A DNA stretch of 32,000 nucleotides, taken from assembly GCA_049323615.1 (NCBI GenBank), contig JBMOPD010000007.1, positions 39,232-71,231 of the forward strand, read 5' to 3'. The DNA comes from Bacillota bacterium. GTDB lineage: Bacteria > Bacillota > Desulfotomaculia > Desulfotomaculales > Desulfocucumaceae. A program made the position numbers and the translations under genes. Below the pieces are notes generated by a model. That model saw only the letters and a list, made by a program, of their open reading frames with translations. It was not told where the DNA came from and searched no databases. This document shows, one piece after another, positions 9,910-31,638 of this stretch (position 1 is the stretch's first letter; each line of letters begins with the position of its first letter).

Positions 9910-9910
9910 C

Positions 9911-12544: not shown

Positions 12545-12961
12545 CTATACTATCCTGGCAACCCTTGAGTAGGGGTGCCCCTTGGCGTTGATCTCCAGGG
12601 TGTTGAACCAGCCAAAGGGCGTGCGCAAGGCATCAAACCCCTTTTGTTTTAAAATTTCTTTTACCCCGTCCATAATCTCCAGGGAGGACTCCGGGGGCCC
12701 CAGCCTGGCAAAAAGGTGGGCAAAGGGGTGCAGCACGATGGTGTTCACCTTCAGGTTGCGGGCGTTCTTTTCTATCTCGGCAGCCGCCCTTGCCGCAACT
12801 TCTTCCGGTCTTTCCTCGTCGCCGGCCTCAACACTCAGCAGCACCACCACCGACTCCCCGACGCTGGTTTCCCGGGGTTCCGGCGGCTCCACCACTTTGG
12901 ACCGCCCCTTTTCGGTTATGCAGCTGCGGAAGCTGTTGACGTGCATCATTATAAATCGCAT
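12545..12961 (-). CDS. Free-standing archaeal-type threonyl-tRNA synthetase editing domain protein (tRNA-Thr-ED, DTD-like fold)
   Basis: 138 aa. Its length and motifs match archaeal ThrRS N-terminal editing domains as I recall them: MRFIMMH start, HPFAHL, PFGWF, KGHP. RBS AAAGGAGG lies upstream. Confidence 0.75.
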   Translation of the reverse strand: MRFIMMHVNSFRSCITEKGRSKVVEPPEPRETSVGESVVVLLSVEAGDEERPEEVAARAAAEIEKNARNLKVNTIVLHPFAHLFARLGPPESSLEIMDGVKEILKQKGFDALRTPFGWFNTLEINAKGHPYSRVARIV

Positions 12962-13074: not shown

Positions 13075-13896
13075 CTAATCTGTTCCCTCCATGATTAATC
13101 TGCTTTTAGTCCTGGGCACCCGGGGCAGGGTGCGGGGCCAGAGATTTTCCAGGTCCGCACCCTGCAGGGCCGAAAGCACCTTTTCCCTCAGGTCGGGATA
13201 CTTTGACTTAAGCCCTTTTACCACGGCCTTTATCTCTTCCCGCTTGGTGAAACCGCTGACCGGGCAGGGATTCTCAATTACCGGCACCTTCTCCATGACA
13301 GCCAGCTCCCTTATGGTTTCCTGGCCCAGGTAGACCAGGGGCCTGATCATGTACAGTCCGGTCCTGTCCAAAAAGGTGTTGGGAGAAAAGGTCCTGAACT
13401 GCCCGGTATAAAAAAGACTCATAAAGAAGGTGTCCACCACGTCGTCCAGGTGGTGGCCCAGGGCTACCCTGTTGCACCCCAGTTTCAGGGCCAGTTCGTT
13501 CAGCGCCCCCCGCCTGAGGGTGGAACAAAGGGCGCAGGGATTTTTTTCGTTCCTCACGTCAAAAACTATCTGCCCGATGTCGGTGGCCTGGTAAATAAAA
13601 TCTATCTCCATCCGCCGGCAGTATTCCTCAAGCGGTGTGATGTCCATACCAAACCCCAGGTCCAGGTAAATACCGTGTATCGCGAATTTAACGGGGGCTG
13701 TCCGCCTGACCGCGTCCAGGGCGTACAAAAGCACGCCGCTGTCCTTTCCCCCGGACAGTCCCACCGCCAGGCGGTCACCGCCGGCGATCATGCCGTAATC
13801 GACAATGGCCCTTTTTACTTTGGCCAGGGCCCACCGCCGGAAATCCTTCTTCCCCATGGGCTGCTCCTTTAATTTGTCACGCACCCTGTTTAACAT
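13075..13896 (-). CDS. PP-loop ATPase, TtcA-family tRNA 2-thiocytidine/thiolation enzyme
   Basis: 273 aa. It carries the PP-loop LSGGKDSGVLLYAL and cysteine motifs NPCALCSTLRRG and ENPCPVSG. Confidence 0.85.
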   Translation of the reverse strand: MLNRVRDKLKEQPMGKKDFRRWALAKVKRAIVDYGMIAGGDRLAVGLSGGKDSGVLLYALDAVRRTAPVKFAIHGIYLDLGFGMDITPLEEYCRRMEIDFIYQATDIGQIVFDVRNEKNPCALCSTLRRGALNELALKLGCNRVALGHHLDDVVDTFFMSLFYTGQFRTFSPNTFLDRTGLYMIRPLVYLGQETIRELAVMEKVPVIENPCPVSGFTKREEIKAVVKGLKSKYPDLREKVLSALQGADLENLWPRTLPRVPRTKSRLIMEGTD

Positions 13897-13988
13897 AAAA
13901 TATCCCCGAAAACAGGAATTAAAACCGTCTACGGAATAATTTGCGGAAGGCAGTACCAGATTATCGCCAGGCGGACCCAGCAGAGAGA

Positions 13989-15023
13989 TTAAAAGCGCCA
14001 GTATCTTCCGAGCCTGGATACCACCCGGGCGATTACCGCGGCGGTGCCAGCCCCTGCGGCTTCATTTCTTTTCGCTCTTTTTTCCTCCCCGGGGCCGGAG
14101 AACGACTTCAGCACTTCCACCGTGCACCGGGCCAGGCCCCCCAGGGCATACCCGCCCTCGAGGGCGGCCACCAAACGCCCGCCGCATACCTGCCGGGCCA
14201 GCCCGGCCACAACGGCCCCCAGCCGGCCGAAGCCCTCGGTGCTCAGCCCCATTCCGCCGATAGGGTCCCCCCGCCAGGCGTCCTGCCCGGCGGCCACCAT
14301 GATCATGTCCGGCCGGTACTGCCTGCAGACCGGAACCAGCACCCTGTCGAATACCTCAAGGTAATCCGGGTCCCCGGCGCCGCCGGGCAAAGGCACGTTT
14401 ATGTTGTAACCCGCACCGGGGCCCTCTCCGACATCCTCCGGCCACCCGGTACCCGGGTAGCCCATGGCCCGGTGCACCGAAAAATACAGCACGGCGGGAT
14501 CATTGTAAAAAATCCGCTCGATTCCGTTGCCGTGGTGGGCGTCCCAGTCCACCACCAGCACCCTTTCCAGCCCCCGCCCCAGGACGTGACGGGCGGCCAC
14601 GGCCAGGTTGTTGAAAAAGCAGAACCCCATTCCCAGCGACGGTTTGGCGTGGTGCCCCGGCGGCCTGACCAGGGCGAAACAATTCTCCACCTCACCGTTT
14701 AAAACCGCCTCCACGGCCGTGATCGCCCCGCCGGCCGCCAGAACGGCCGCCTCAAAGGTACGGGAGGACCCCACGTTGCCGCCCATGAAGGAACCCCCGC
14801 CCCGGCGCGAAAACTCCTCCACTTTCTCTATGTATTCCATGTGGTGGACCAGGGTCAGTTCCCCCACAGTGGCCGGGCGGGGTTCGATAATTTTCAGGCT
14901 GCTCTTGATACCGGCCGCTGCTATCCCTTCCATAATCGTCTTTAGCCGGTCCGGCCTCTCCACGTGACTACCGGTATCGTGTTCCAGGTATGCGTCGTGA
15001 TAAACCAGGCCGGTCACAGCCAC
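13989..15023 (-). CDS. Histone deacetylase-family protein (AcuC/acetoin-utilisation-like lysine or polyamine deacetylase)
   Basis: 344 aa. It carries the motifs RPPGHHA, VVDWDAHHGNG and LEGGY. Confidence 0.9.
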   Translation of the reverse strand: MAVTGLVYHDAYLEHDTGSHVERPDRLKTIMEGIAAAGIKSSLKIIEPRPATVGELTLVHHMEYIEKVEEFSRRGGGSFMGGNVGSSRTFEAAVLAAGGAITAVEAVLNGEVENCFALVRPPGHHAKPSLGMGFCFFNNLAVAARHVLGRGLERVLVVDWDAHHGNGIERIFYNDPAVLYFSVHRAMGYPGTGWPEDVGEGPGAGYNINVPLPGGAGDPDYLEVFDRVLVPVCRQYRPDMIMVAAGQDAWRGDPIGGMGLSTEGFGRLGAVVAGLARQVCGGRLVAALEGGYALGGLARCTVEVLKSFSGPGEEKRAKRNEAAGAGTAAVIARVVSRLGRYWRF

Positions 15024-15050
15024 TTATCATCCATCCCGTGAAGCTTTTTC

Positions 15051-15072
15051 GTCAGAATCCAGAATTCAGAAG
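15051..15072. repeat. Heptamer-type repeat GTCAGAATCCAGAATTCAGAAG (left inverted end of the 15051-15306 block)
   Basis: It matches the reverse complement of 15290-15306 (GTCAGAATTCAGAATAA) at 14 of 15 positions. It also matches the reverse complement of the TCTGGAT array at 31604-31638. Confidence 0.75.
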
Positions 15073-15250
15073 TTAAAAAGACCAATCCCCGAAAAGTTTG
15101 CCTGCTCCGGTATTAATTTTACAGTGTCCGCCAAATTTAGGCAACTGTATAGGGTACCCACCCGTCACTGTCCCTTTTCCTCCCCCAAAATAAAAGACAC
15201 CCCTTCCGGGATGTCCCTAAAGGCTTACCCTGAAAATCTTTCCCGTCAGA

Positions 15251-15304
15251 ATCCAAAAAGCCAGAATACAGAATAGATGCACTGTACTTTTATTCTGAAT
15301 TCTG
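15251..15304 (-). terminator. Intrinsic terminator of the ubiX-ending operon, built from heptamer repeat units
   Basis: Arms at 15262-15275 (CAGAATACAGAATA) and 15291-15304 (TATTCTGAATTCTG) pair at 13 of 14 positions. On the minus-strand RNA the hairpin is followed by GCUUUUUGG. The ubiX stop codon (15290-15292) lies at the loop/arm junction of this hairpin. Confidence 0.6.
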
Positions 15305-15922
15305 ACTGCTGGCGGCTGATTGCTGACAGCCGACTGCTATTTTCAAGAAAACTTTCCTTTCCTCAAGGCCCATCCAGCGCTTGAAAAGTCCGTGGGGGAC
15401 CCCTACCAGGTCCAGGGCCTTCCCCACCGTCTGGTTGATTACATCGTCCAGCTGTTTGGGCTGGTGGTAAAAGGCCGGAACCGGAGGCATCAGTATCCCG
15501 CCGGCCATGGTGACCTGCTCCATCAGCCTGATGTGCCCCAGGTGCAGCGGGGTTTCCCGCAACAGCAGGACCAGCCTCCTTCTTTCCTTGAGCACCACAT
15601 CGGCGGCCCTGGCCATCAGGTTGTCGTTGTAAGAACAGGCTATGGCCGAAAGGGTCTTAACAGAACAGGGAGCGATGATCATGCCGGCGGTCTGAAAAGA
15701 TCCGCTGGCGATTGAAGCCCCGACGTTTTCCATGTCGTATGTCCTGTGGGCCAGTCCCCTGACATAATTTAAATCGTAGGATGTCTCATGGGTTATGGTT
15801 ATTTCGGCCACCCTGGATATAATCAGGTGGGTTTCAATATTTTTTTCGGACGCCAGCACCTCCAGCAACCGGATGCCGTAAATGGCCCCGCTGGCGCCGC
15901 TTATGCCGACGATAATTCTCAT
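15290..15922 (-). CDS. ubiX: UbiX-family flavin prenyltransferase (prFMN synthase)
   Basis: 210 aa. The N-terminus MRIIVGISGASGAIYGIRLLEVL is the classic UbiX/Pad1 flavoprotein start. The last ~17 residues derive from the heptamer repeat. Confidence 0.9.
   Translation of the reverse strand: MRIIVGISGASGAIYGIRLLEVLASEKNIETHLIISRVAEITITHETSYDLNYVRGLAHRTYDMENVGASIASGSFQTAGMIIAPCSVKTLSAIACSYNDNLMARAADVVLKERRRLVLLLRETPLHLGHIRLMEQVTMAGGILMPPVPAFYHQPKQLDDVINQTVGKALDLVGVPHGLFKRWMGLEERKVFLKIAVGCQQSAASSQNSE
15293..15341. repeat. Seven consecutive degenerate heptads TTCTGAA TTCTGAC TGCTGGC GGCTGAT TGCTGAC AGCCGAC TGCTATT
   Basis: Direct reading shows strict 7-nt periodicity. The stretch lies inside the 3' end of the ubiX ORF and encodes the tail IAVGCQQSAASSQNSE. 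Confidence 0.75.
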
Positions 15923-15986
15923 CGGAAACCCTCTTTCTTCAAAAAATGGGGCTGCCTCCGGGTACGCCGGGGGCTGTTGGTTTTCA

Positions 15987-17642
15987 TTATTGTATTTTGC
16001 CTTCTTCCTTCAGTTTGTCGGTCACCATCTGCCTCAAGGCCACCTTGTTGATCTTGGAATCCCCGGCCAACGGGAAACTGTCCACCAGTTCCAGCCTTTC
16101 GGGCAGCTTATACATGGCCAGCTTTTTGGTCTTCAGGTAGCCCACCATCTCCTCAAAGGTCAGGGGCTCCGCCGAAGAGGCCGGAATTACAAAGGCGCAG
16201 GCCTTCTCACCCATCACCGGGTCGGGCATGGCGACGACGGCGGCGTTGGAAACCTTGGGATGGGCGATGAGCAGGCTTTCGATTTCACCGGGGTAAATAT
16301 TCTGGCCCCCCCGGATGATAATATCCTTTTTCCGGCCGGCAATCACTATATAGCCGTCCTCGTCAATCTTGGCCAGGTCCCCCGGGCAGGCCCAGCCCTC
16401 GGCGTCAACGGCCTCGGTAAAGGTTTTTTCGGGATCCCGGTAGTACCCGCTGGAGCTTTGGGGGCCTCTGAAGTAGAGAAGGCCCACTTCACCGCGGGGA
16501 ACTTCCTGCCCGCTGTCGTCCACCAGCTTGATCTCGTTGCCTACAAGCGGCCTGCCCACCGTTGAGCGCCTTTTTTCCGGGGAATCCCCGGTGGAGGTGC
16601 CGGAAATGGACCCGGTATCCTGGGAGCCGTAGGTGCTTAAAATGGGGCATCCCATTTTTCTTTCCACTTCCTCGGCCAGGGTTGGGGAAAGGTAGCCGCC
16701 GCTGCACCTGATTATCCTCAGGGAGGACAGGTCGTACTTCTCCAGGGGTTCTTGGATCATGGCGGCCAGTTGGGCCGGGACCACACAGGGAACGGTGACC
16801 CTTTCCTTTTCAAAGAACTCCAGGGCTCCCACCGGGGTATATTCGTGCAGCAGCGCAATTTTCGCTCCCACCTGGGGCGCCACAAAATAGGTGGGTGTTC
16901 CGCCGGGCGCCCCGGGCCAGGGGGCAACGGCGCAGACCACATCGTCGGCGCTTAGTTTCCAGTTTTGAGCATGGGTTTTGGAGCTCCACAGGCGGGCCGC
17001 GATGGTCCACTCAACTATTTTGGGCAGGCCGGTGGTGCCCGTGGTGCTGGTCAGAAATCCCACCTCGGTGGCCTTGAGCCTTCTGGAGAGCAGGTATTCC
17101 CCGCTGTATTTTTCCACCGGGGCCTTTTGAACCATTTCGGAGTATGAAGCCGCCCCATCCGGGACTTCATCTCCGACCACAATGACGTGCTTCAGCTTGG
17201 GTAAACCGGGGCGGACCTCCCGGATCATTTCAAAATAATCAAAATTCCTGTATTTCCACGGTATTATCACCGCCGAGGCCTCAATCCGCCCCAGGATTTC
17301 GGTCAGCTCCGAGTGCCGGTATACATGCATCAGAGCTATGGAAATCAGCCCGGCCTTTTCGGCGGCCACCCTGGCGATAAATCCCTCCACCCGGTTGGGC
17401 AGCTGGATGGCAATGCGGTCGTCCTTTCCCAGTCCCAGCTCGATCAGCCCCACCGCAAGCCGGTCTATCTGCTGTTTGGCCTGGGACCAGGTAAGCCTGT
17501 TCCCTATTGAATCTATCAGGGCTTCCTTGTCGGGAAATTTGCGGGCATTCTCCTCCCAGTAGTCGGAGATAACCTCGCCGGTCCAGTAGCCCTGTTGGCT
17601 AAATTCCTCAGCTTCCTTTTCATTGAACCTTACCGGTATCAA
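15987..17642 (-). CDS. AMP-forming aryl/acyl-CoA ligase (ANL superfamily, DhbE/EntE-like aromatic acid ligase)
   Basis: 551 aa. It carries the AMP-binding motifs LTSTTGTTGLPK, YGSQDTG and GDLAKIDEDGYIVIAGRKKDIIIRGGQNIYPGEIE. The N-terminal region resembles aryl-acid adenylating enzymes. Confidence 0.9.
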   Translation of the reverse strand: MIPVRFNEKEAEEFSQQGYWTGEVISDYWEENARKFPDKEALIDSIGNRLTWSQAKQQIDRLAVGLIELGLGKDDRIAIQLPNRVEGFIARVAAEKAGLISIALMHVYRHSELTEILGRIEASAVIIPWKYRNFDYFEMIREVRPGLPKLKHVIVVGDEVPDGAASYSEMVQKAPVEKYSGEYLLSRRLKATEVGFLTSTTGTTGLPKIVEWTIAARLWSSKTHAQNWKLSADDVVCAVAPWPGAPGGTPTYFVAPQVGAKIALLHEYTPVGALEFFEKERVTVPCVVPAQLAAMIQEPLEKYDLSSLRIIRCSGGYLSPTLAEEVERKMGCPILSTYGSQDTGSISGTSTGDSPEKRRSTVGRPLVGNEIKLVDDSGQEVPRGEVGLLYFRGPQSSSGYYRDPEKTFTEAVDAEGWACPGDLAKIDEDGYIVIAGRKKDIIIRGGQNIYPGEIESLLIAHPKVSNAAVVAMPDPVMGEKACAFVIPASSAEPLTFEEMVGYLKTKKLAMYKLPERLELVDSFPLAGDSKINKVALRQMVTDKLKEEGKIQ

Positions 17643-17664
17643 ACGGGAATCCCCCTTTCGTTAT

Positions 17665-18939
17665 TCAGCCAGCTGAATTGTGATTGGCCGGTTCGGCGGC
17701 CGGCGCCGCCCCGGCCATTACTTCCCGGAAGGCCGCCACCACCGCCCGGGCAAATTCCGGGTCTTCCAAATTGGCGTCAATCTCCCTTATTTCAATGGCA
17801 CTTTTTAACCGCCTCTTCAGCTCATCGACAAAGATGCGGTCGGTATCGGGGTCGTAAAGAACCGTGGAAGCGCCGTCAATGGCGGACCAGCCCCTGAGCG
17901 GGACAAGGAACTTGACCGGGCCCCGGGCCAGGTTGAGCTTCTCGGCGAAAACCCCGGCCACCGTCACCAGCTCGTCGGGGGCCACCCGGAGAAAGGTGCG
18001 GTGGGCATCCAGGTCATACCTCTTCCGGTTATAATAGTCGGGCTTGTATTTGCTTTTCGGGGGCGTCATCAGGTTGACACAGCAGGGAGCGATCACCTGG
18101 GGCAGGCCCATCTTACCCGCAGCCTCCAGCCTGTTGGGACCGGCCGCCCTGGTCCCGCCCAGGATCTCTTCCCCCACCCCGCCGGGGGCCAGGTCAATTA
18201 CGGCCTCAAACATGCCCTCCCTTTCAATAAGCTCCTCCATTGCCTTGTCGGCCACGCCGGTGGCCGAAAAGCCCACCACCTGGCACCCCTCCCTTTCCAG
18301 CTGGTCCCGCACCATTGAGGCGCACTTCTCGCACATGTTCAATTGAGTCATGGCCACCAGGGCCTTGCCTTTTTGTTTTTTCTTCAGTACTTCCGCGCCG
18401 CTGCGGCCACCCCCGGCCATTCCGGTGATGGACCCGGCCGCCCGGTCCAGGATGCTGCGCATCAGGTCGTTCAGCCCGGTAAAGTCTACCACCGAATGCA
18501 TAATATCAATGTCCGCCGTGCCGAAATACCTGCTGGTCAGCCCCCTGGCCGCGGCCACGCTGGAAACCATCAGCTTCGGCACACCGAAGGGCAGGGCCTT
18601 CATCACGCCGGTGCCCAGCAGGGTTCCGGTGGCGCCCCCGATGCCGACAATTCCGTCCAGCCTGCCCGAACGGTACAGTTCCTTCACCTTTCTGCCCGCC
18701 CCGTCGGACACGGCCTGGATCAGCGCCGGCCGGCCGGCGTTGACAGCATCCGCCCCGGGCTCCCCGGCGGCGGCCAGGACCTCTTCCCTGGTTATGTCGG
18801 CCTCAATAGTGGGGCAACCCTTTGTGCCCACGTCTATGACTATTGTCTGAAAACCCTCTTTTTCTATTTGCTCCTTCAGGTAAATGGTTTCAGCCCCCTT
18901 GGTGTCCAGCGTGCTGACGATGACTATGGTTTTACCCAT
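17665..18939 (-). CDS. Tm-1-like ATP-binding domain protein (UPF0261 family)
   Basis: The start is reassigned to ATG 18939, with RBS GAGGTGG upstream. MGKTIVIVSTLDTKGAETIYLKEQIEKEGFQTIVIDVG is the typical UPF0261 N-terminus. The 47 upstream codons in the ORF track lack an RBS. Confidence 0.85.
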   Translation of the reverse strand: MGKTIVIVSTLDTKGAETIYLKEQIEKEGFQTIVIDVGTKGCPTIEADITREEVLAAAGEPGADAVNAGRPALIQAVSDGAGRKVKELYRSGRLDGIVGIGGATGTLLGTGVMKALPFGVPKLMVSSVAAARGLTSRYFGTADIDIMHSVVDFTGLNDLMRSILDRAAGSITGMAGGGRSGAEVLKKKQKGKALVAMTQLNMCEKCASMVRDQLEREGCQVVGFSATGVADKAMEELIEREGMFEAVIDLAPGGVGEEILGGTRAAGPNRLEAAGKMGLPQVIAPCCVNLMTPPKSKYKPDYYNRKRYDLDAHRTFLRVAPDELVTVAGVFAEKLNLARGPVKFLVPLRGWSAIDGASTVLYDPDTDRIFVDELKRRLKSAIEIREIDANLEDPEFARAVVAAFREVMAGAAPAAEPANHNSAG

Positions 18940-19110
18940 AAAACCACCTCTTCTGTGGACTACGGCCCTTAAACTTTTTGCCTGCACACCTATCGGGGAT
19001 TGTGAAATTAATAACATGAATGACGCCCCGGGTGTCACGCTGCGGAGCCGGTCTGCCGTACAGACAAAGACAAAAGGCATTTACATTAATTTGCCTCTTT
19101 TACGCCGGCC

Positions 19111-19151
19111 CAGTCCGGGCGCCCCTGGCCAGGGGGCCCGGACTGTCCGGG
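19111..19151 (-). other. GC-rich long imperfect palindrome / stable stem-loop inside the operon
   Basis: CAGTCCGGGCGCCCCTGG (19111-19128) pairs with CCAGGGGGCCCGGACTG (19129-19145), giving 17 bp with one bulge. An overlapping mini-palindrome CCCGGACTGTCCGGG lies at 19137-19151. No U-run follows on either strand. Confidence 0.6.
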
Positions 19152-19164
19152 TTAATCCCGCCCC

Positions 19165-20580
19165 TTAATCCTCAAAGCCGTAGTCCTTCCACTTGCTTAA
19201 CACTGTCTTGACCATGTCTCCGTCCAGCTGGATTTCTATGGGCTTGCGCTCCCACTCGTGCGGAATGCAGGCGTCCATGATAATCCGCGAGCAGATATCC
19301 CGGTTATTGATGGGGAGGGAGGGATCCAGGGGCGTGGACCGCCCCCGCTTGATCAGCTCGGTGGACCGGTAGGGGTCGTAACGCACGCTGAGCGCCCACA
19401 TAACCTTGTTCCAGTCATCGGCCGGGATATCGTCGTCCACCACGATCACGCCCTTGAGGCCGTAGTGGCCGGTAGTGGTGGAAACAACGGCGGTGCCCAC
19501 ATGCATGGAGTGGCCGGGATACATTTGTTTTACCGAGACTATGGCCCAGAACCGGCCGGTGGACTCGGGGGGAATGTAGACCGACTTGATGCCGGGAACC
19601 CTCATGTTCTCCAGGTCGGTCCACAGGGTGGCAGTGCGGTTCAGGGACTGGATCATGTGGGTGTCGGTAATCGGTTTACCCACCGAGGTGGCCCACAAAA
19701 TGGGGTTGTTGCGGTGCAGCACCCTCTTCACCCTGATAAAGGGCTTCGGCCACTCCTCGCTCTTCTTGCCGGAATAATACCCCGTGTATTCCCCGAAGGG
19801 ACCTTCCTCCCGGCGCTCCACCGGGTCGATTTCACCCTCCAGGATTATTTCTGCCGTGGCCGGCAGGGGCAGCCCGGTCAGGTCGCTGATAATCACCTCG
19901 GCCGGTTCGCCCCGCAGCGCCCCGATCACATCGTATTCCGATGTCCCGGCCGAAACCAGGGTACTGCCCACCAGGAAGTTCAGGGGGTCGCCCCCGATCA
20001 CCGCCGCGGCGGGCATCGGCTTGTTCAGGGCGATGTATTTGTTGAGGTGGAAGTCGGCGTGCTTGCCCTTGATGATTTGCACGCCCACGGATTTTTCATC
20101 CAGGATCTGCATGCGGTAGGTGCCCAGGTTCACCCATCCCGAATCCGGGTCCCTGGTAATGAGGGCCACCGCCGTGCCGATGAACCGCCCCCCGTCCATG
20201 GGGTAAAACTTCGGGGTGGGGAAATCGAAGAGATTTACCCCGCCGCCTTCCACTATGTTTTCCATCACCGGGCCGGTGGAAACCTCCCGGGGAGGAATCA
20301 GCTGCTTGATGGACAGCTCCATCCAGTGCCGGGCCAGGTTGCACATGCTGGTGTGCACCGGCATGTCGAGGGCCACGGCCAGCCTTTTGGAGGTGGTGAA
20401 GGCGCTGGTAAACACCGGAATGTCATACCCCTTGGGCTTCTGGAAAAGGAGCGCCGGCCCCTTTCTTTCCTCGTTTATCTTGGCGATGTGCGAAAGTTCC
20501 AGGTTCCAGTCCACTTCCGCCTCTATTCTTTTCAGCTCTCCTATTTCATCGCATTTCTTGATGAAATCCCTTAAATCCAT
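19165..20580 (-). CDS. UbiD-family (de)carboxylase, phenylphosphate/aromatic carboxylase-like
   Basis: 471 aa. It shows UbiD-fold motifs including GPFGEYTGYY and an N-terminus MDLRDFIKKCDEIGELKRIEAEVDWNLE. RBS GGAGG lies upstream. Confidence 0.9.
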   Translation of the reverse strand: MDLRDFIKKCDEIGELKRIEAEVDWNLELSHIAKINEERKGPALLFQKPKGYDIPVFTSAFTTSKRLAVALDMPVHTSMCNLARHWMELSIKQLIPPREVSTGPVMENIVEGGGVNLFDFPTPKFYPMDGGRFIGTAVALITRDPDSGWVNLGTYRMQILDEKSVGVQIIKGKHADFHLNKYIALNKPMPAAAVIGGDPLNFLVGSTLVSAGTSEYDVIGALRGEPAEVIISDLTGLPLPATAEIILEGEIDPVERREEGPFGEYTGYYSGKKSEEWPKPFIRVKRVLHRNNPILWATSVGKPITDTHMIQSLNRTATLWTDLENMRVPGIKSVYIPPESTGRFWAIVSVKQMYPGHSMHVGTAVVSTTTGHYGLKGVIVVDDDIPADDWNKVMWALSVRYDPYRSTELIKRGRSTPLDPSLPINNRDICSRIIMDACIPHEWERKPIEIQLDGDMVKTVLSKWKDYGFED

Positions 20581-20616
20581 ACTCCGACCTCCATCTGTTA
20601 AGCAATTTTATTAAAC

Positions 20617-21702
20617 TCAGCTGTCCGGCTCCCGGGGAAAAAATTTCTTGCCGGCCAGCAGGGTGCTGGCGATATGTTCCAGGGCGCTGGACTTGGGCTT
20701 TACCACCGGCTCGGCCTTTTTCCTGGACCAGACGGTTTCCGGCCTGGTCTGGAGCAGTATTATATTGCCGGGAGGGGGCAAATCGCTGTCCACGGCCCAT
20801 TCCAGGTCCTGGGGGACGCCGTAGTGCCGCTCCACCATTTTCCCCAGCTTGGCCAGCTGCACAACTTCACTGTCCTCCAGGCAGGGCAGGTTAACTTCCT
20901 CCGGGGGAACATCCACCGCCTGGATGCTTCCGCCGGGGCCGTACACCATTTTCATCTTCTTGGAACAGATGACCCGCCTGGTGATCTGCAGGGTTACCTT
21001 GTCAACGGTGTATTTGTCCGGCGTGACCTGGCCGCTGACCAGGCTTTCCCCCAGCCCCCAGCTGCCTTCGATAAATATTCTTGAAGGGTCGCCGTTCAGC
21101 GGGTCCAGGGTGAACATGACCCCGGACGACCTGGCATTGACCATTTTAAGCACGGCCACCCCGATGGGCGAACTTTCCACCCGCATCCCGCGCTGCATCC
21201 GGTAGGCAATGGCCCGGGCGTTAAAGGAGCTGGCCCATACCCTCTTAACGTGGGCCAATACTTCCTCCGGGCCGTTTATATTGAGAAAGGTATCGAACTG
21301 CCCCGGCATGCTCACCGGGCCGCTGGACCGGATGGCCACACTGACGCCGGGAGCCCCGCATCTTTTCCCAAGCTCATGGTAGTGTTCAAGTATAACCTCC
21401 CTGATATCCCCGGGCACCGGCTGCGACTCCACCAGCCCGCCGATGTGCCGGCCGGCCTCCTCAAAAGCGCCCACGTCTTCCTTCATCCTGTCGATATTAT
21501 CGTCAAAATACTGGCGGATGGACCGGCCAACCCCGGTTTCGTCTATGAACGTTTCGTAAGCCTTCAGTGATACGGCGAATCCGGGGGGTACCGGCAGGCC
21601 GGACCTCAGCATCTCACCGAGGCCGCAGCACTTTCTGCCGGCCAGAAAAAGGTCATCCCTGTCCAGGTCCTCCAGCCAGTATACGTATTTATTGTCTTCC
21701 AC
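20617..21702 (-). CDS. PEP/pyruvate-dikinase N-terminal (ATP-grasp, PPDK_N) domain protein, phenylphosphate synthase beta-subunit (PpsB)-like
   Basis: 361 aa. It carries LFLAGRKCCGLGEMLRSGLPVPPGFAVS, the nucleotide-binding domain signature of PEP synthase. Its size matches the ~40 kDa PpsB. Confidence 0.85.
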   Translation of the reverse strand: MEDNKYVYWLEDLDRDDLFLAGRKCCGLGEMLRSGLPVPPGFAVSLKAYETFIDETGVGRSIRQYFDDNIDRMKEDVGAFEEAGRHIGGLVESQPVPGDIREVILEHYHELGKRCGAPGVSVAIRSSGPVSMPGQFDTFLNINGPEEVLAHVKRVWASSFNARAIAYRMQRGMRVESSPIGVAVLKMVNARSSGVMFTLDPLNGDPSRIFIEGSWGLGESLVSGQVTPDKYTVDKVTLQITRRVICSKKMKMVYGPGGSIQAVDVPPEEVNLPCLEDSEVVQLAKLGKMVERHYGVPQDLEWAVDSDLPPPGNIILLQTRPETVWSRKKAEPVVKPKSSALEHIASTLLAGKKFFPREPDS

Positions 21703-21744
21703 GGGTTGCCCCCCTTTTTTCCAGGAAAAGAACCCGGCGGTGGG

Positions 21745-23580
21745 TTACAGGATGGTAACGATACCCCTGTTCCCGTTCACCCTGATTCTCATGCCTGTTT
21801 TTATGGCCGCTGTGGCGTATCCCGCGCCGACCACCGACGGCAGGCCATACTCCCGGCAGACAATGGCAGCATGGGACATTATGCCGCCAACGTCGGTAAC
21901 CACGGCAGAGACCTTGGAGAATATGGGCGCCCAGCTGGGAGAGGTGGTAGGCGCCACAAGAATTTCGCCTTCCTGCAGCGTGGTCAGCTCTGACGGGCCG
22001 CGAACCACCCTGGCCACTCCTTCGATTACCCCAGGGGCCCCGGCGAAACCTTTCAGCTGGGAAATATCCTCCACCTTGGTCTTGTCGGCGTCCAGCCAGG
22101 CTTCCAGCCGTTCGGTGGTAATACCCCAGAGGATGATGGTAAAGGGTTCATTGACAGTTTCCGGCGGGATCCCCAGGGCCGGCGGGGGGGGATTTTCCCT
22201 GAATTTTTTCAACACATCCTTGCGCCACTCTATCTCCCGGGGCCAGTAGGACGGTCCCCTGGCCTTTACGCCGGTGGCCCAGGCGCATACCAGGTCGTAG
22301 AGCGCCTGCTGTATTTCAAAGCGGTTTAAGTACCAGATATCTTCCACATCGTTGAAGAACCCGTGTTTCACGAAAACCCCGGAAAGCTCCCTCACCTTCA
22401 TGTAGAACCTGGTGTGGAACCAGTGTTCCACATAAAACAGGTGCTCTTCCACGTAGGGATACACCGTCTGGGATATCCCCAGGAGCTGCCGGAAGGTCTG
22501 GCGGTCCTCATCGGTGCGCAGCAGGGAGGCGTATTCCTCCACGATGCGGTCCCGTTCCCGGCGCGTTTCCTCCACCGGCCGCTCCAGGCTCTCGCCCTTT
22601 TCCACCAAGTCAATGTAGGCGCGTATGGACATAAAGGGTATCTCCGGGCGGTCGTACCAGCTCCAGTGGTCGTGGTACCAGCCGGTGCCGGAGGAAGTGT
22701 AAAACCACGGCTCCTTGGACTCTTCCAGTTGCTCCAGCCATTTCCGGCCGGGATCCGAATCGGCCAGTTTTTTAACCAGCTCGCCGGGTTCCACGGTAGA
22801 CTTGATGACCTCGGCCACCCCCAGGCTGACCGCCGATTTGGCCAGCCCCTTTAGCTTCCGGTCGGGCTCGAACAGGATCACGTCTATCCCGGAAACCATT
22901 TTGGTAATGGCCCCGTCCTCGATACCCTGGAACGCCCTGCGGCAGAAACCGGCGAAGGTGACGTAAGCCGCGTAGCCCAGGTTGAGGAATTCAAAGTGGT
23001 ACTGCCAGGCCTTCAGGGCCAGGCTGATCAGCCGGTCGTACTTGTTGATCAGGTGGTAGCCGCTGCTCATGCCCACCCCGTCCATAACCACCGATATGTC
23101 TTCCATGTCCGGCAAATCGGCAATGTCAATGCTGTCAACTTCCCCGATTATTTCCTCCATCTTGACTTTCCACCGGCCGTAAAGACGGTCCCAGTTCTCG
23201 TAATAATAGCCGGCCCGCTGCATGAAATGCTGTACCCGCTCTTCCACAATCTTGGGGTCGGTCACGGGAACAGGGGTGATGTACACGTAGCCGTTTTTAA
23301 TGCGGTGGTCAACGCCATAGGCGGGAGGCACCATAAATATCCGGGTGTTGTTCTGGGAGAGGGCCAGAAACCAGGCCTCATCCCAGATCAGGTCGAAGGG
23401 GTACATCGCTTCCGGGTAGTGCAGCCCGTCATAAAACCAAAGCATGCTGTTTTCGTATTCTTCTCTTTCTTTATCATCCCGGGAAAAAATGTAATAATAT
23501 GGGTACATTCTTTCCCAACCCTCTGTCCCGGGAATTTCCGGGACATCCCCTGGCTTCATAAATTGGCGCTGCGCGGACAT
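21745..23580 (-). CDS. PEP-utilising-enzyme mobile (phospho-His swivel) domain protein, phenylphosphate synthase alpha-subunit (PpsA)-like
   Basis: 611 aa. The C-terminus GGIMSHAAIVCREYGLPSVVG is the phosphohistidine swivel motif. A ~480-aa N-terminal domain begins PGTEGWERMYPYYY..WFYDGLHYPEAMYPFD, as in PpsA-type proteins. RBS AAAGGAGG lies upstream. Confidence 0.85.
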   Translation of the reverse strand: MSAQRQFMKPGDVPEIPGTEGWERMYPYYYIFSRDDKEREEYENSMLWFYDGLHYPEAMYPFDLIWDEAWFLALSQNNTRIFMVPPAYGVDHRIKNGYVYITPVPVTDPKIVEERVQHFMQRAGYYYENWDRLYGRWKVKMEEIIGEVDSIDIADLPDMEDISVVMDGVGMSSGYHLINKYDRLISLALKAWQYHFEFLNLGYAAYVTFAGFCRRAFQGIEDGAITKMVSGIDVILFEPDRKLKGLAKSAVSLGVAEVIKSTVEPGELVKKLADSDPGRKWLEQLEESKEPWFYTSSGTGWYHDHWSWYDRPEIPFMSIRAYIDLVEKGESLERPVEETRRERDRIVEEYASLLRTDEDRQTFRQLLGISQTVYPYVEEHLFYVEHWFHTRFYMKVRELSGVFVKHGFFNDVEDIWYLNRFEIQQALYDLVCAWATGVKARGPSYWPREIEWRKDVLKKFRENPPPPALGIPPETVNEPFTIILWGITTERLEAWLDADKTKVEDISQLKGFAGAPGVIEGVARVVRGPSELTTLQEGEILVAPTTSPSWAPIFSKVSAVVTDVGGIMSHAAIVCREYGLPSVVGAGYATAAIKTGMRIRVNGNRGIVTIL

Positions 23581-23612
23581 GGCCCGCCTCCTTTTACTAC
23601 ATTTTTTTCTCT

Positions 23613-23630
23613 TTATAAAACTTATAAAAC
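23613..23630 (-). promoter_or_regulatory. Perfect tandem 9-mer (GTTTTATAA x2 on the minus strand) 33-50 nt upstream of the ppsA-like start
   Basis: Plus strand reads TTATAAAAC TTATAAAAC. Each copy contains a TATAA -10-like core, and no good -35 lies upstream. It is a candidate activator-dependent promoter or operator. Confidence 0.3.
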
Positions 23631-23711
23631 GGTGCGCTGCTGCGGGCGGCGATCACTTCCTTCCCGGGTCTTAAAACGGCAGTCCACAAAAAGTTTGACG
23701 GGCCTCTTTTC

Positions 23712-23740
23712 TTGACATAGGCCGGCTTACTCTGTAAATT
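23712..23740 (+). promoter_or_regulatory. Near-consensus sigmaA-type promoter on the plus strand (TTGACA-17-TAAATT)
   Basis: TTGACA at 23712-23717, an exact 17-nt spacer, TAAATT at 23735-23740. It points away from ppsA and toward the 3' end of the regulator gene. Confidence 0.4.
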
Positions 23741-23793
23741 GAAAACATAAAAGTCACTGTAAACACGGCTTGCCAGGCCGGCGTTTTACAGTG
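23741..23793 (-). terminator. Intrinsic terminator for the regulator gene
   Basis: Hairpin at 23755-23793: a 9-bp stem CACTGTAAA/TTTACAGTG, a 1-nt bulge, then 3 more bp. On the minus-strand RNA it is followed by ACUUUUAUGUUUUC. Confidence 0.55.
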
Positions 23794-23854
23794 TCACCCC
23801 GCCACTGCCGGCCTGTTTACTTGACCGGGGAGGACCGGCAGTGGCGATTTTTTT
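23747..23854 (+). ncRNA. Candidate ~105-nt small RNA between the ppsA-like gene and the regulator gene
   Basis: It is bounded by the promoter at 23712-23740 and the terminator at 23800-23854 and contains two strong hairpins. No ATG or RBS is present. Confidence 0.3.
23800..23854 (+). terminator. Plus-strand intrinsic terminator (12-bp stem plus T7)
   Basis: CGCCACTGCCGG (23800-23811) pairs with CCGGCAGTGGCG (23835-23846). Seven T follow at 23848-23854. The U-run is on the plus-strand side only. Confidence 0.6.
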
Positions 23855-23863
23855 GGCTTTGCC

Positions 23864-26302
23864 TTACCTCATTCCCTCAATCATCTTTAGGGCCAGCTGC
23901 ACCTGCAGATTGGTCTCGGGGTGGCTTAAATTTATTCCGGCTATTTCGGATATACGCCTCAGCCTGTATTTCATGGTGCTGGAATTCATGAACCCGTTGC
24001 GGGCCGCTTTCTGAATGTTGCAGTTGTTGTTGAAATAAAGCATCAGGGTCTGCACCAGGTGGGAATTGTGTTTTTCGTCGTATTTCAACAGGGGGCCGAT
24101 GACGCGGTCAATAAACTTTTTAAACTGTTCCGCGTTGATATTGAGCAGGCCGAAAACACCAAGCAACTCGTGGGCCTGGCATTTGTTCCGGTAGTTCAGC
24201 GACTTGATTATATCAATGGTTATGCAGGCCTCCTGGTACGAGGCGGCAAACCCGGACACGCCCCGGCAGGGCGAACTGATGCCCGCCCGCCAGATGTAAT
24301 CCGGAAAAATGTCGTTGAATCTTCTCTCCATTTCCCCGGTCATGTTCCGCAAGTGGGTGGCCGCCTGTTTTTCCCGGGTTTCATCCAGAATTAAAAGGCC
24401 AATTATGTTTACCTTTTTCCCGATAACCACTATATTGGGGGATACCTGGCTGACCACCCGGTCCACAGCCTGAAAGAGGCTTTTCCCTTTACAGTAGCTC
24501 TCCGGCGGGGCAACGGCGGCTTTGGGAATAAAATCGATGGCCACCACCCTGAAAGTCCCGGTCAGGTCCAGCCCCAATTTCTCGGCCCGGCGGATAATCA
24601 CTTCCTCGTTATCAAGCTTCCCTTCCAGCAATTCTTCCAAAAAGTCTTTCTTAAGCCTCCTTTCGGTCTCAAAGGAGGCCTTCTGTTTGAGCAAATCCAG
24701 GGCAATGACGGTCCCGGCATGCTCAACGGCCATGCAGTCCAGCTGGCTGAGAGGCCGGTTGCCCTCCAGGGTGGCGACAAAGCCCAGGTTATCACTGCCG
24801 GCCATTATGGAGGCCACCACCAGGTTAGACTGGGGATTTGATTTCTTTGCCGCCGCAATATTGATTAAACGTTTCTCGGCAAAAAGAGTGGCCATTTTTT
24901 CCCTGAACCGGGCCTCCTGTATGGTGTCCTGCCAGACCTGCCCGATATCCCCCGCGCCGCCCCCGGGAACCGAGCTTGATATGATATTGAAGAACTGGTC
25001 TGCGATAATCACCGGGCGGGATAAAATAACGGCCAGGTTGCGGCCTATTTCCTCCAGGCCGTGGCCCTCCAGCACCAGGGAGGTAAGCCGGTTGTGAATG
25101 TGCGTGGATTTTTGCAGCGCCTCGTGCTCGGCCAAAAGCAGGCTGTTGACCCGGTACAGCTCGGCGATATTCTCCTGCAGCTTTTGATTGGTGTGCTCAT
25201 AAACCCGGGCATTGCCCAGGGCTACGGCGGAATGGGCCCCCAGAAACCCGAGTATTTCCCTGTCATGCTGGGAAAATTGCCCCCCGCCGCTTTTATTGAT
25301 CACAATCAGGGCGCCGATCAGCTCTTTCCTCAAATAAAGGGGAATCCCCAGCAGGCCTTTTATCTCAATATCCAGTCCCTGGATGGCCCGGGGAACACCG
25401 TAGCTTTCCACCGGCTCCCGGCTTTCCAATATGGAAGTGACCAGGCCCGAGGATTCGGTGAGCACCCGGGTGTTTATTTTCTCCCGGCCCATCGTTTCAT
25501 AAAGCAGTATCCTTTTTTTCCTTTCGGTGACCACGGCCATAACCGCCTTTTGGGCCCGCAGCAGTTTTTGCGCGTAATCCACCGTTTTTACCGGCATGTT
25601 GCTGGAGCTGAGATTGGTGCTGATGTCAATTATGGCCTGGTTCATGGCCTGCCATGTTTTTGCCCTCTCCCGCTCCTCCTCCAGCAGGGTCTGAAAATTT
25701 TTGAGCACCGTATTTCTATTTAAATCCTTTATATTGCGGGCCGCCTGCCCGTTCCATTCCTCCAGGGACCTCATTTCATAGCGGCAGTATGGGTCTCCCA
25801 TGCCCCGGCACATGGTCTCCACACAAACCACATCCCGCCCCATAAAACCGGACCCGAAACCGCTGGTATACCCGGTAAGGGTCCAGCAGACGGGTTCTTT
25901 TGCCCGGCCGTACTTAAGCAGGTAATTTTCGGCCTCATATGAATTTCGCCAGATCCCGCGCATGAGAAAGGCGCCGCTTTGGCGGTCAAACTTCAGCTCG
26001 TCACAGGTGGCGTGCACCATGCCCTCCAGGGTATGCATCATGGGCCCCGCCAGCATCCAATCGGCATCGCTTTTAAAAGTGAAGAATTCCCGGGAGGCCA
26101 TCACGTCAAAGTGTCCGCAGCGGTATCCAAAACGGGTAAGGATATTGCGGGCCATATCTTCTCCCAGGTTCCTCACCAGTTCTTCCCTTAACCGGAACAG
26201 GGAATCGGCCCGGAAAAGCAGCATCCGGTTGCCGCGCAGGCTTATTATCCCCTCATCCGGATTTATGTCAAGGAGTTCCGTCACCACAAAATCTGGAACC
26301 AC
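23864..26302 (-). CDS. Transcriptional regulator: XylR/DmpR-type aromatic-sensing N-terminal domain (XylR_N + V4R) - GAF - PucR-family C-terminal HTH
   Basis: 812 aa with a GTG start after AGGGGGG. The N-terminus GIISLRGNRMLLFRADSLFRLREELV..ILTRFGYRCG..PVCWTLTGYTSGFGSGFMG..CRGMGDPYCRYE matches the A-domain of phenol/xylene sensors. A central GAF-like block follows. The C-terminus IQKAARNGFMNSSTMKYRLRRISEIAGI is a PucR-type HTH. No sigma54 AAA+ motifs (GAFTGA, Walker A) are present. Confidence 0.85.
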   Translation of the reverse strand: MVPDFVVTELLDINPDEGIISLRGNRMLLFRADSLFRLREELVRNLGEDMARNILTRFGYRCGHFDVMASREFFTFKSDADWMLAGPMMHTLEGMVHATCDELKFDRQSGAFLMRGIWRNSYEAENYLLKYGRAKEPVCWTLTGYTSGFGSGFMGRDVVCVETMCRGMGDPYCRYEMRSLEEWNGQAARNIKDLNRNTVLKNFQTLLEEERERAKTWQAMNQAIIDISTNLSSSNMPVKTVDYAQKLLRAQKAVMAVVTERKKRILLYETMGREKINTRVLTESSGLVTSILESREPVESYGVPRAIQGLDIEIKGLLGIPLYLRKELIGALIVINKSGGGQFSQHDREILGFLGAHSAVALGNARVYEHTNQKLQENIAELYRVNSLLLAEHEALQKSTHIHNRLTSLVLEGHGLEEIGRNLAVILSRPVIIADQFFNIISSSVPGGGAGDIGQVWQDTIQEARFREKMATLFAEKRLINIAAAKKSNPQSNLVVASIMAGSDNLGFVATLEGNRPLSQLDCMAVEHAGTVIALDLLKQKASFETERRLKKDFLEELLEGKLDNEEVIIRRAEKLGLDLTGTFRVVAIDFIPKAAVAPPESYCKGKSLFQAVDRVVSQVSPNIVVIGKKVNIIGLLILDETREKQAATHLRNMTGEMERRFNDIFPDYIWRAGISSPCRGVSGFAASYQEACITIDIIKSLNYRNKCQAHELLGVFGLLNINAEQFKKFIDRVIGPLLKYDEKHNSHLVQTLMLYFNNNCNIQKAARNGFMNSSTMKYRLRRISEIAGINLSHPETNLQVQLALKMIEGMR

Positions 26303-31603: not shown

Positions 31604-31638
31604 TCTGAATTCTGGATTCTGGATTCTGGATTCTGACC
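31604..31638. repeat. Heptamer array TCTGAAT (TCTGGAT)x3 TCTGACC, abutting the response-regulator stop codon
   Basis: Direct reading. Its reverse complement (GTCAGAATCCAGAATCCAGA...) matches 15051-15065. Confidence 0.9.

Follow-up and report, generated by a model that had tools for sequence, protein, structure and literature searches.

A UPF0261 protein associated with the PpcB-type UbiD enzyme in a probable anaerobic phenol operon of a Desulfocucumaceae bacterium

How do strict anaerobes carboxylate phenylphosphate? As set out in one published account (PMC6114531), the make-up of their carboxylase has been open since 2009, with a homologue of PpcB alone being recognised, and a different mechanism has repeatedly been suggested. 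The question is raised again by six genes on the minus strand of a 32,000-nucleotide stretch of DNA from a Bacillota bacterium of the family Desulfocucumaceae (contig JBMOPD010000007.1, positions 39,232 to 71,231), the whole of which we call the window. They encode the two subunits of a phenylphosphate synthase (PpsA and PpsB), one carboxylase of the UbiD family, a UPF0261 (Tm-1-like ATP-binding) protein, an aryl-acid-CoA ligase and the flavin prenyltransferase UbiX. We think it probable that this operon serves the single-UbiD route of the strict-anaerobe (Geobacter/Desulfotomaculum) type, leading from phenol to 4-hydroxybenzoyl-CoA without oxygen, with the UPF0261 protein most likely acting together with PpcB. 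The gene cluster is itself ordinary, and its value lies in the association of UPF0261 with PpcB that is exposed by comparison.

Genes and relatives of the operon

Genes were assigned to families with Pfam and NCBIfam profiles, applying the cut-offs of the models. The six open reading frames (ORFs) recognised earlier in a sequence-only reading are all present, separated by gaps of 42, 36, 225, 22 and 64 bp. The first two encode the synthase. The alpha subunit, of PpsA type (21745..23580, 611 aa), has the swivelling phospho-His carrier; the PEP (phosphoenolpyruvate)-utilizers mobile domain PF00391 spans residues 536-606, the phospho-His motif GGIMSHAAIVCRE (GGIMSHAAI) is present, and the model NF006152 is matched with 883 bits against a cut-off of 723. 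The PpsB-type subunit (20617..21702, 361 aa) is an ATP-grasp nucleotide-binding protein (PF01326 PPDK_N, E 3e-94) whose gene is syntenic with ppsA in nearly all the loci that we surveyed. PpsA is 54-58% identical to the proteins of Geobacter and of canonical clusters, and 70-72% identical to those of Desulfoscipio gibsoniae and a related Bacillota locus, L002. Together with PpsB (41-42%) and PpcB (58%), it is an orthologue of a protein of the canonical clusters, of which the PpsABC and PpcABCD proteins of Thauera aromatica are the type.

The third gene (19165..20580) encodes the UbiD-family carboxylase of 471 aa. It exceeds the cut-off of the phenylphosphate carboxylase beta-subunit equivalog TIGR02724 (643.9 bits, cut-off 469), while the PpcA model TIGR02723 gives 180 bits, below its cut-off of 565. 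The protein is 29% identical to PpcA and 58% identical to PpcB of canonical clusters. In a neighbour-joining tree it falls with its counterparts from loci L001, L002 and L081 in a clade of single-PpcB proteins, with canonical PpcB as sister and PpcA outside both; neither this tree nor that of UPF0261 below carries support values. The placement among the UbiD clades, which the sequence-only reading had left to phylogeny, is therefore in the PpcB lineage. The NCBI names of the identical proteins from the metagenome-assembled genome (MAG) agree, being phenylphosphate carboxylase subunit beta for this protein and Tm-1-like ATP-binding domain-containing protein for UPF0261. A plain 4-hydroxybenzoate decarboxylase was considered and rejected, in view of a VdcC model score of 296 against a cut-off of 650 bits and the fixed synteny with PpsAB.

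Six residues of the UbiD protein, N151, R156, H174, E215, E259 and E264, are invariant in an alignment of 16 homologues. Their spacing is the same as that of what we take to be N168, R173, H191, E233, E277 and E282 of Fdc1, the comparison being one of spacing only. The enzyme thus probably retains the ligands of prenylated flavin mononucleotide (prFMN) and Mn, together with the E-R-E catalytic residues. This gene is itself the only UbiD match in the 32 kb, as had been supposed. The absence of PpsC, PpcA, PpcC and PpcD is also borne out, since tblastn of the window at E <= 10 with queries from related loci returned no homologue of these four or of LpdD, and queries for PpcC and PpcD from canonical loci gave only noise (E > 0.2).

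The last two genes encode the ligase and UbiX. The AMP-forming aryl-acid-CoA ligase (15987..17642, 551 aa, with a TTG start) has AMP-binding and AMP-binding_C domains. Among enzymes of solved structure it is closest to the 2,3-dihydroxybenzoate- and salicylate-AMP ligases of DhbE/EntE type (E 7e-88 to 5e-81), and it falls short of the benzoate-CoA ligase family TIGR02262 (191 bits, cut-off 375). We presume that it may nevertheless be a 4-hydroxybenzoate-CoA ligase. UbiX, the prFMN synthase (15290..15922, 210 aa), matches NF004685 with 270 bits (cut-off 188) and TIGR00421 with 238 bits.

The operon is not alone. Desulfoscipio (Desulfotomaculum) gibsoniae is a cultured sulfate reducer that uses phenol and many phenolics for growth (PMC4148979). 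Its order of a XylR_N/V4R-PucR regulator, PpsA, PpsB, UbiD, UPF0261, ligase and UbiX is that of the window gene for gene, with identities of ~70% for UPF0261, 70% for PpsA and ~77% for PpcB. The gene set and its order recur in this species and in the Bacillota MAG loci L002 and L010, and the arrangement is therefore more than chance. In Paradesulfitobacterium aromaticivorans the cluster is rearranged, and is followed by genes for three types of 4-hydroxybenzoyl-CoA reductase subunit. FAD, 2Fe-2S and Mo genes like those of this reductase adjoin the cluster there and at L002, L012, L017 and L066.

The core of the operon has been described before. The phenol operon of Geobacter metallireducens, Gmet_2100-2102, consists of ppsA, ppsB and ppcB, with ppcB as the only ppc homologue (PMC1924859, PMC6114531), and the ppsA-ppsB-ppcB core lacking ppcA, ppcC and ppcD, the "strict-anaerobe type", was described for this organism in 2009, according to a later account (PMC6114531). 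PpsAB, PpcB and a UbiX-like gene have also been named as a core common to nitrate, sulfate and iron reducers and syntrophs (PMC5946492). The window has in common with the Geobacter and D. gibsoniae versions the contiguous ppsA, ppsB and ppcB, the sole PpcB-type UbiD and the UbiX-like gene (PMC1924859, PMC6114531, PMC5946492). The same contiguous genes, accompanied by UbiX and with neither ppcA nor ppcC, are found at the Geobacter/Geotalea loci L062 and L075. Given the counterpart in D. gibsoniae and the Geobacter-type cluster already described, the window operon is a further copy of the strict-anaerobe kind and no new architecture. The earlier idea of a novel, "minimal" system cannot be kept, the more so as the survey below finds this to be the commonest context of PpcB.

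Another Bacillota operon, the putative benzene carboxylase cluster abcD-abcA-bzlA-ubiX of Peptococcaceae, likewise unites ubiX with genes for a UbiD-family protein and an aryl-CoA ligase. In gene content and family models the window differs from it in having a UbiD that is a PpcB equivalog, PpsAB upstream and a phenol-type sensor.

What pathway might these proteins form? In Thauera, phenol is converted into phenylphosphate at the expense of ATP (to AMP and Pi), phenylphosphate into 4-hydroxybenzoate with loss of phosphate, and this into the thioester (PMC6114531). We infer the steps for the window, including substrate and direction, from this paradigm; the role of UPF0261 calls for the most caution, and is taken up in the next section. 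The logic of phosphorylation, carboxylation and thioesterification that had been read from the genes holds for the families assigned here. PpsB would bind ATP and charge the swivelling His of PpsA, which would phosphorylate phenol, with ATP yielding AMP and Pi. The PpcB-type UbiD, provided with prenylated flavin by UbiX, would then carboxylate phenylphosphate para to the oxygen to give 4-hydroxybenzoate, the phosphoryl group being released, and the DhbE-like ligase would form the CoA thioester of 4-hydroxybenzoate.

UPF0261 and the partners of PpcB

The UPF0261 gene had been regarded as an incidental unknown, yet it turns out to be the most informative gene of the cluster. With an alignment of PpcB we scanned the genomes of GTDB species, a single one for each, and obtained 80 loci, 72 of them with enough flanking DNA to be assessed. 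Gene order was taken from plus-strand ORFs and tblastn tables. Accessory families were named by NCBIfam and Pfam: ORF cluster c5 is the CBS-pair protein PpsC, c8 the LpdD-type prFMN chaperone, c18 the KdsC-like PpcD (TIGR02726) and c49 PpcC (TIGR02725/PF09662), while c6 and c10 are artefacts of long antisense ORFs in high-GC loci. UPF0261 is present at 64 of the 72 loci; three are canonical, five have neither, and none has both. In 48 of the 64 the UPF0261 gene lies immediately 3' of ppcB.

Three gene orders account for the different lineages. The dominant one, PpsA-PpsB-PpcB-UPF0261-PpsC-UbiX, is found in Beta-, Gamma- and Alphaproteobacteria, Geobacter and Geotalea. A second, PpsA-PpsB-PpcB-ligase-UPF0261 with or without a following PpsC, occurs in Desulfomonilaceae and other Deltaproteobacteria, and the majority of proteobacterial and deltaproteobacterial loci include PpsC. 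The order of the window, PpcB-UPF0261-ligase-UbiX, is that of Bacillota. The Thauera order PpcB-PpcD-PpcA-PpcC is seen at only three of the genome loci scanned (L068, L073 and L080), all of which lack UPF0261.

Canonical clusters were sought further by scanning metagenome contigs with a PpcA alignment; 34 loci with PpcC and a length of 9 kb or more were kept. Not one of the 34 has UPF0261. UbiX is found at 29 of them and PpcD at 32, and a ligase of the window type at a single locus. Set against the presence of PpcA/PpcC, the distribution of UPF0261 has a nominal Fisher p = 4e-23, which is indicative only, since the loci share ancestry. The two distributions are clearly complementary, and from this we conclude that PpcB is partnered either by UPF0261 or by PpcA/PpcC. 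Compared with the Thauera type, the window thus lacks PpcA (the second UbiD), PpcC (the 84-aa gamma subunit), PpcD (the KdsC-like delta subunit) and PpsC (the stimulatory CBS protein), and has in its operon a UPF0261 gene and a ligase that are absent, or nearly so, from the canonical loci. We expect no difference between the two types in the chemistry as a whole. UbiX belongs to both types, and had wrongly been taken to stand in for the canonical subunits; since canonical loci carry it too, dependence on prFMN does not separate the two. The association of UPF0261 with PpcB is strong and complementary to PpcA/PpcC. It is not found in the literature that we searched, where no paper joins phenylphosphate carboxylase or UbiD with Tm-1, or UPF0261 with phenylphosphate carboxylase, and it has become interpretable since the paper on MarK in 2025.

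The window UPF0261 protein (17665..18939, 424 aa) consists of the two domains PF06792 and PF23189. It matches MarK (PDB 9MPY) over its full length (E 4e-46), and Tm-1 was matched as well. MarK (Saro_1862) of Novosphingobium aromaticivorans is a kinase that converts ATP to ADP in phosphorylating acetovanillone and related monomers at the phenolic OH; this activity, shown in 2025, is the only catalytic activity known in the UPF0261 family (PMC12624787). In other bacteria the same task falls to the PpsAB-like dikinases AcvAB and HpeHI (PMC12624787). The window protein and MarK share the two-domain fold of the family, the D-T-K motif of the ATP site and a place in aromatic catabolism that involves aryl phosphates. 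D12-T13-K14 of the window protein correspond to D14-T15-K16 of MarK, K14 being equivalent to K16 of MarK and K20 of Tm-1. The pocket that holds acetovanillone in MarK is altered, with H219 replaced by S225, the stacking H304 by L310, H348 by I354 and G195 by N201. The genomic surroundings differ too: MarK has a biotin carboxylase (AcvCDE) and a phosphatase (AcvF) as neighbours (PMC12624787), kinases of its type being located with acvCDEF/hpeCBAD, while those of the window protein are PpcB, the ligase and UbiX.

The UPF0261 proteins linked to PpcB form one clade in the neighbour-joining tree, apart from MarK and from second UPF0261 copies at the same loci. Within it, subfamily A (46 loci) has the motif NDTRG, with Arg for the ATP-site Lys, keeps His219, and is followed by PpsC with no ligase. 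Subfamily B, to which the window protein belongs, comprises 14 loci and all the top database matches; it is linked to a ligase and combines the motif TDTKG with Ser at position 219, and the ATP-site Lys is kept in 99% of its members. A third group, M, has four loci. Residues invariant in A, B and M that are not found in MarK include R70, H148, R264, D311, R314 and W351. All five of the subfamily-B homologues that were inspected individually (52-70% identity) lie in PpsAB-UbiD-ligase clusters. The Geobacter and other proteobacterial versions of the operon are thus distinguished by subfamily A, PpsC and the lack of an in-cluster ligase, and appear to be under a different type of regulator, whereas the Bacillota version of the window has subfamily B, an in-operon ligase, no PpsC and a PucR-type regulator. 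Apparent fusions of UPF0261 (ORFs > 600 aa, for example at L026 and L027) were rejected as over-extended ORFs that run across ppcB in another frame.

What might such a protein do beside PpcB? In Thauera, the core of alpha, beta and gamma subunits performs CO2 exchange only, and the phosphatase-like delta subunit is required for the use of phenylphosphate (PMC6114531). UPF0261 replaces PpcA and PpcC, and usually PpcD, in gene neighbourhoods, its family has an aryl-phosphate chemistry, and arginines specific to the clade lie in the substrate-binding domain. For these reasons we tentatively suggest, at somewhat under an even chance, that it is an ATP/ADP-binding, phosphoryl-handling partner of PpcB that takes the place of PpcA, PpcC and PpcD. 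It would bind the aryl phosphate, take or release the phosphoryl group and pass on the phenolate. A bolder form of this proposal, which we regard as doubtful, is that the clade provides the missing component of the single-UbiD phenylphosphate carboxylase: a phosphotransferase related to MarK that binds phenylphosphate, removes its phosphoryl group, possibly to ADP, and delivers phenolate to the prFMN-dependent PpcB in place of PpcA, PpcC and PpcD. Whether that group would be hydrolysed, or passed to ADP with the saving of one ATP, is pure speculation. A saving would be attractive in view of the energy problem noted for sulfate reducers (PMC6114531).

Several observations weigh against assigning to UPF0261 this part in phenol carboxylation. 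Five single-PpcB loci (L017, L025, L029, L032 and L033) lack the gene, which is thus not an absolute requirement. A PpcD-like gene accompanies UPF0261 at L001 and L156, so that UPF0261 may replace PpcA and PpcC rather than PpcD. PpsC is usually the next gene after UPF0261, a possible tie to the synthase, and in the ~20 loci that contain both, subfamily B adjoins the ligase or lies near it, which fits a ligase-related role equally well; at L015 two other genes intervene. Subfamily B lacks the His219 of MarK that contacts the phenolic oxygen, with Ser in 99%. The aniline system of D. anilini worked in vitro with two PpcB paralogues, and needed no UPF0261 (PMC7500099). Against the proposed pathway as a whole, domain annotation of the 32-kb window found neither 4-hydroxybenzoyl-CoA reductase nor genes of the benzoyl-CoA pathway.

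The kinase activity of MarK suggests another explanation, that UPF0261 is a second phenolic kinase using ATP to ADP in parallel with PpsAB and outside the carboxylase. It could then offer a cheaper, one-ATP route to phenylphosphate, or could phosphorylate other phenolics. The sole characterised UPF0261 enzyme does exactly this reaction on a phenolic OH, and about a quarter of the genomes with aromatic kinases have genes for the MarK type as well as for the PpsAB-like AcvAB/HpeHI type (PMC12624787). The window protein keeps the D-T-K motif, as do 99% of the proteins of subfamily B. However, the three His residues of the MarK pocket have given way in it to Ser, Leu and Ile, with Ser225 in 99% of the subfamily. 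Moreover, PpsAB is present in both types of cluster, and one would not expect a redundant kinase to be missing from just those with PpcA and PpcC. The tightest link of UPF0261 is to ppcB, and at L065, L004 and L001 no PpsAB is seen in the available sequence of the operon strand, which for L004 and L001 reaches only 3-4 kb upstream. A second kinase is thus unlikely, and we favour the assignment of UPF0261 to PpcB.

Some loci depart from the common pattern. At L017, a Bacillota locus without UPF0261, a 426-aa protein of the HAD-hydrolase family occupies its slot (13238-14518), a point in favour of UPF0261 as a partner of PpcB, and at L083 (7452-10482) a low-molecular-weight phosphotyrosine phosphatase is encoded beside two tandem UPF0261 genes. 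L073, from Thermincola, has the canonical PpcB-D-A-C followed by three more UbiD paralogues (13789-17861), and with these a divergent PpsA (28% identity). A divergent lineage of PpsA, of ~573 aa with an Rph_4th match and 27-31% identical to the window protein, pairs with PpcB at L082 (13036-14757), L007, L008, L015 and L073, P. aromaticivorans and Thermincola being included.

Sensor, ligase and substrate

The gene directly upstream of ppsA, and co-directional with it, encodes a transcriptional regulator of 812 aa (23864..26302) with XylR_N/V4R, GAF, GGDEF_2 and PucR-type helix-turn-helix (HTH) domains. Its N-terminal 233 aa match the sensors of PoxR, CapR and MopR (E 4e-35 to 4e-29; MopR 5KBE at E 7e-30), the alignment covering the first 190 residues. 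By positions counted in the alignment it keeps MopR H106 and W134, which we take to be the phenol contacts, and C155, E178, C181 and C189, presumably the zinc site. It shares this sensor with MopR, DmpR and PoxR, but not their sigma-54 module: there was no Sigma54_activat match in the regulator, whose output part is GAF, GGDEF_2 and PucR HTH_30. In D. gibsoniae, P. aromaticivorans and L002, too, the operon is preceded by an orthologue of this regulator. The protein presumably turns the operon on in response to its MopR-like phenol-sensor domain.

Could the operon act on an aromatic other than phenol? Aniline, cresol, catechol, hydroquinone or another phenolic might then be used with unchanged chemistry, and the product acid would differ. 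Aniline, cresol and catechol-type compounds had been offered as candidates by the sequence-only reading. There is precedent in D. anilini, which uses PpsAB-like and PpcB-like proteins on aniline (PMC7500099), and many phenolics support the growth of D. gibsoniae (PMC4148979). The window ligase stands outside the classical benzoate/4-hydroxybenzoate-CoA family, its nearest solved relatives acting on ortho-hydroxylated benzoates, and sensors of the MopR type can be tuned to other phenolics. The ani cluster of D. anilini resembles the window in its split PEP-synthase-like kinase, PpcB-like UbiD and lack of gamma and delta subunits, but it differs in having two PpcB paralogues from different clusters and a kinase alpha subunit only ~27% identical to the Pps-alpha of the same organism (PMC7500099). 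The window has one UbiD only, and its PpsA groups with bona fide PpsA, at the 54-58% identity given above. With the phenol-contact residues of MopR kept in the regulator, a UbiD that exceeds the PpcB equivalog cut-off, and genes of the 4-hydroxybenzoyl-CoA-reductase type flanking the cluster in relatives, the balance of the evidence makes another substrate quite unlikely. These same features of PpsA, regulator and relatives put the earlier candidates behind phenol.

It is very unlikely that UPF0261 serves the cofactor or the ligase instead, as a dimethylallyl phosphate or prFMN-maturation kinase for UbiX/UbiD or as an ATP-handling helper of the ligase, since, despite the nearness of subfamily B to the ligase (with a 4-bp gene overlap in P. 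aromaticivorans) and the recurrence of HD, HAD, Nudix and metallophosphoesterase genes and the LpdD prFMN chaperone near UbiX (PMC10865409), canonical PpcABCD clusters mostly have UbiX and never UPF0261, the larger subfamily A occurs without a ligase, and UPF0261 lies mostly beside ppcB, not ubiX.

Boundaries and surroundings of the operon, and its wider meaning

The 283-bp intergenic region between the regulator and ppsA (23581..23863, minus strand), as read from the sequence, presumably contains the promoter and operator of the operon. A ribosome-binding site, AAAGGAGG, lies 5' of the ppsA ATG, and no match to the sigma-70 consensus was found on the operon strand of this region.

The 225-bp spacer between ppcB and the UPF0261 gene (18940..19164) depends on the choice of start codon, as the mechanical ORF (17665-19080) extends to 19080. 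ATG 18939 is preferred because it is preceded by the ribosome-binding site GAGGTGG and because the Pfam match starts at residue 50 of the longer ORF. Right after the UbiD stop codon the spacer contains a GC-rich hairpin (~19103-19152), with a fold of -40.8 kcal/mol (z = -2.7) and no U tract. Analogous GC hairpins occupy the same operon position in the spacers of L010 and L002, and a long ppcB-UPF0261 spacer is also seen in D. gibsoniae, L010 and L002. The hairpin may be a site of mRNA processing or stability, or a border between two expression units. A small PpcC-like gene was sought in the spacer, and no conserved ORF was found, there being none common to the window, L010 and L002; nor did any Rfam family match. 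The sequence TTTCACAAT, present in the spacers of both the window and L010, was tried as an operator and rejected, as it is not enriched (9 matches against 6 expected in the window).

The operon ends (15193..15306, minus strand) with an AT-rich hairpin and an intrinsic terminator. A terminator had been placed at 15251-15304; the inverted repeat there is real, but the canonical terminator, with a GC-rich 11-bp stem and a U tract, sits at 15193-15218. The AT-rich hairpin (~15245-15306) is built of CAGAATN heptads and spans the ubiX stop codon, after which comes a run of T. Over 126 nt the fold of the operon end has an energy of -41.4 kcal/mol (z = -3.7). The heptad CAGAAT[C/T/A] is repeated in intergenic DNA, where CAGAATNCAGAAT is matched 7 times and 0.07 matches would be expected. 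It is found in the window at 15053-15072, 15262-15304 and 31609-31635, the last with three tandem copies, and L010, a related MAG locus, also has it between the UbiD and UPF0261 genes, at about 1100-1130. It may be a REP-like (repetitive extragenic palindrome-like) element.

Beyond the regulator and the operon, domain annotation found no further aromatic-catabolism genes in the window. Downstream of the operon are genes for HDAC-family, TtcA-like and threonyl-tRNA synthetase (ThrRS)-editing-domain proteins, an ADP-forming acyl-CoA synthetase, and RND and MFS transporters. The histone-deacetylase-family gene (13989-15023, minus strand) lies just past the operon terminator. In Bacillus and Rhodopseudomonas, deacetylases of the AcuC/LdaA type reactivate acetylated AMP-forming acyl-CoA ligases, and the product of this gene might regulate the operon ligase. 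No synteny of the gene was found in the loci of relatives, and in D. gibsoniae a weak GNAT match follows ubiX in its place. The editing domain (12545-12961, minus strand) is a stand-alone protein of 138 aa, of the archaea-type threonyl-tRNA synthetase (PF08915, E 1e-35), in a Bacillota genome. Next after the ADP-forming acyl-CoA synthetase (701 aa) comes a DRTGG/AAA_26 protein like the N-terminal region of phosphotransacetylase (8848-12016 for the two, minus strand), and the pair could conserve ATP from acetyl-CoA or aryl-CoA. Upstream of the regulator, a 524-aa protein (28266-29840, plus strand) has an adenylate/guanylate cyclase catalytic domain fused to a SMODS nucleotidyltransferase domain, and could be a signalling or defence-type nucleotide synthase; its gene adjoins that of a HAMP/HisKA histidine kinase (29853-31346, minus strand).

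What does the association of UPF0261 with PpcB mean for anaerobic phenol degradation? A dedicated clade of UPF0261, present in about 90% of single-PpcB clusters, is a concrete and testable candidate in a question about this enzyme that is 15 years old. It bears both on the energetics of phenol degradation without oxygen and on UbiD enzymes as carboxylation catalysts. If UPF0261 does remove the phosphoryl group of phenylphosphate, this would explain why 14CO2 exchange, an activity typical of the Thauera enzyme, is missing from that of Geobacter, and how anaerobes limited in energy can afford the activation of phenol.

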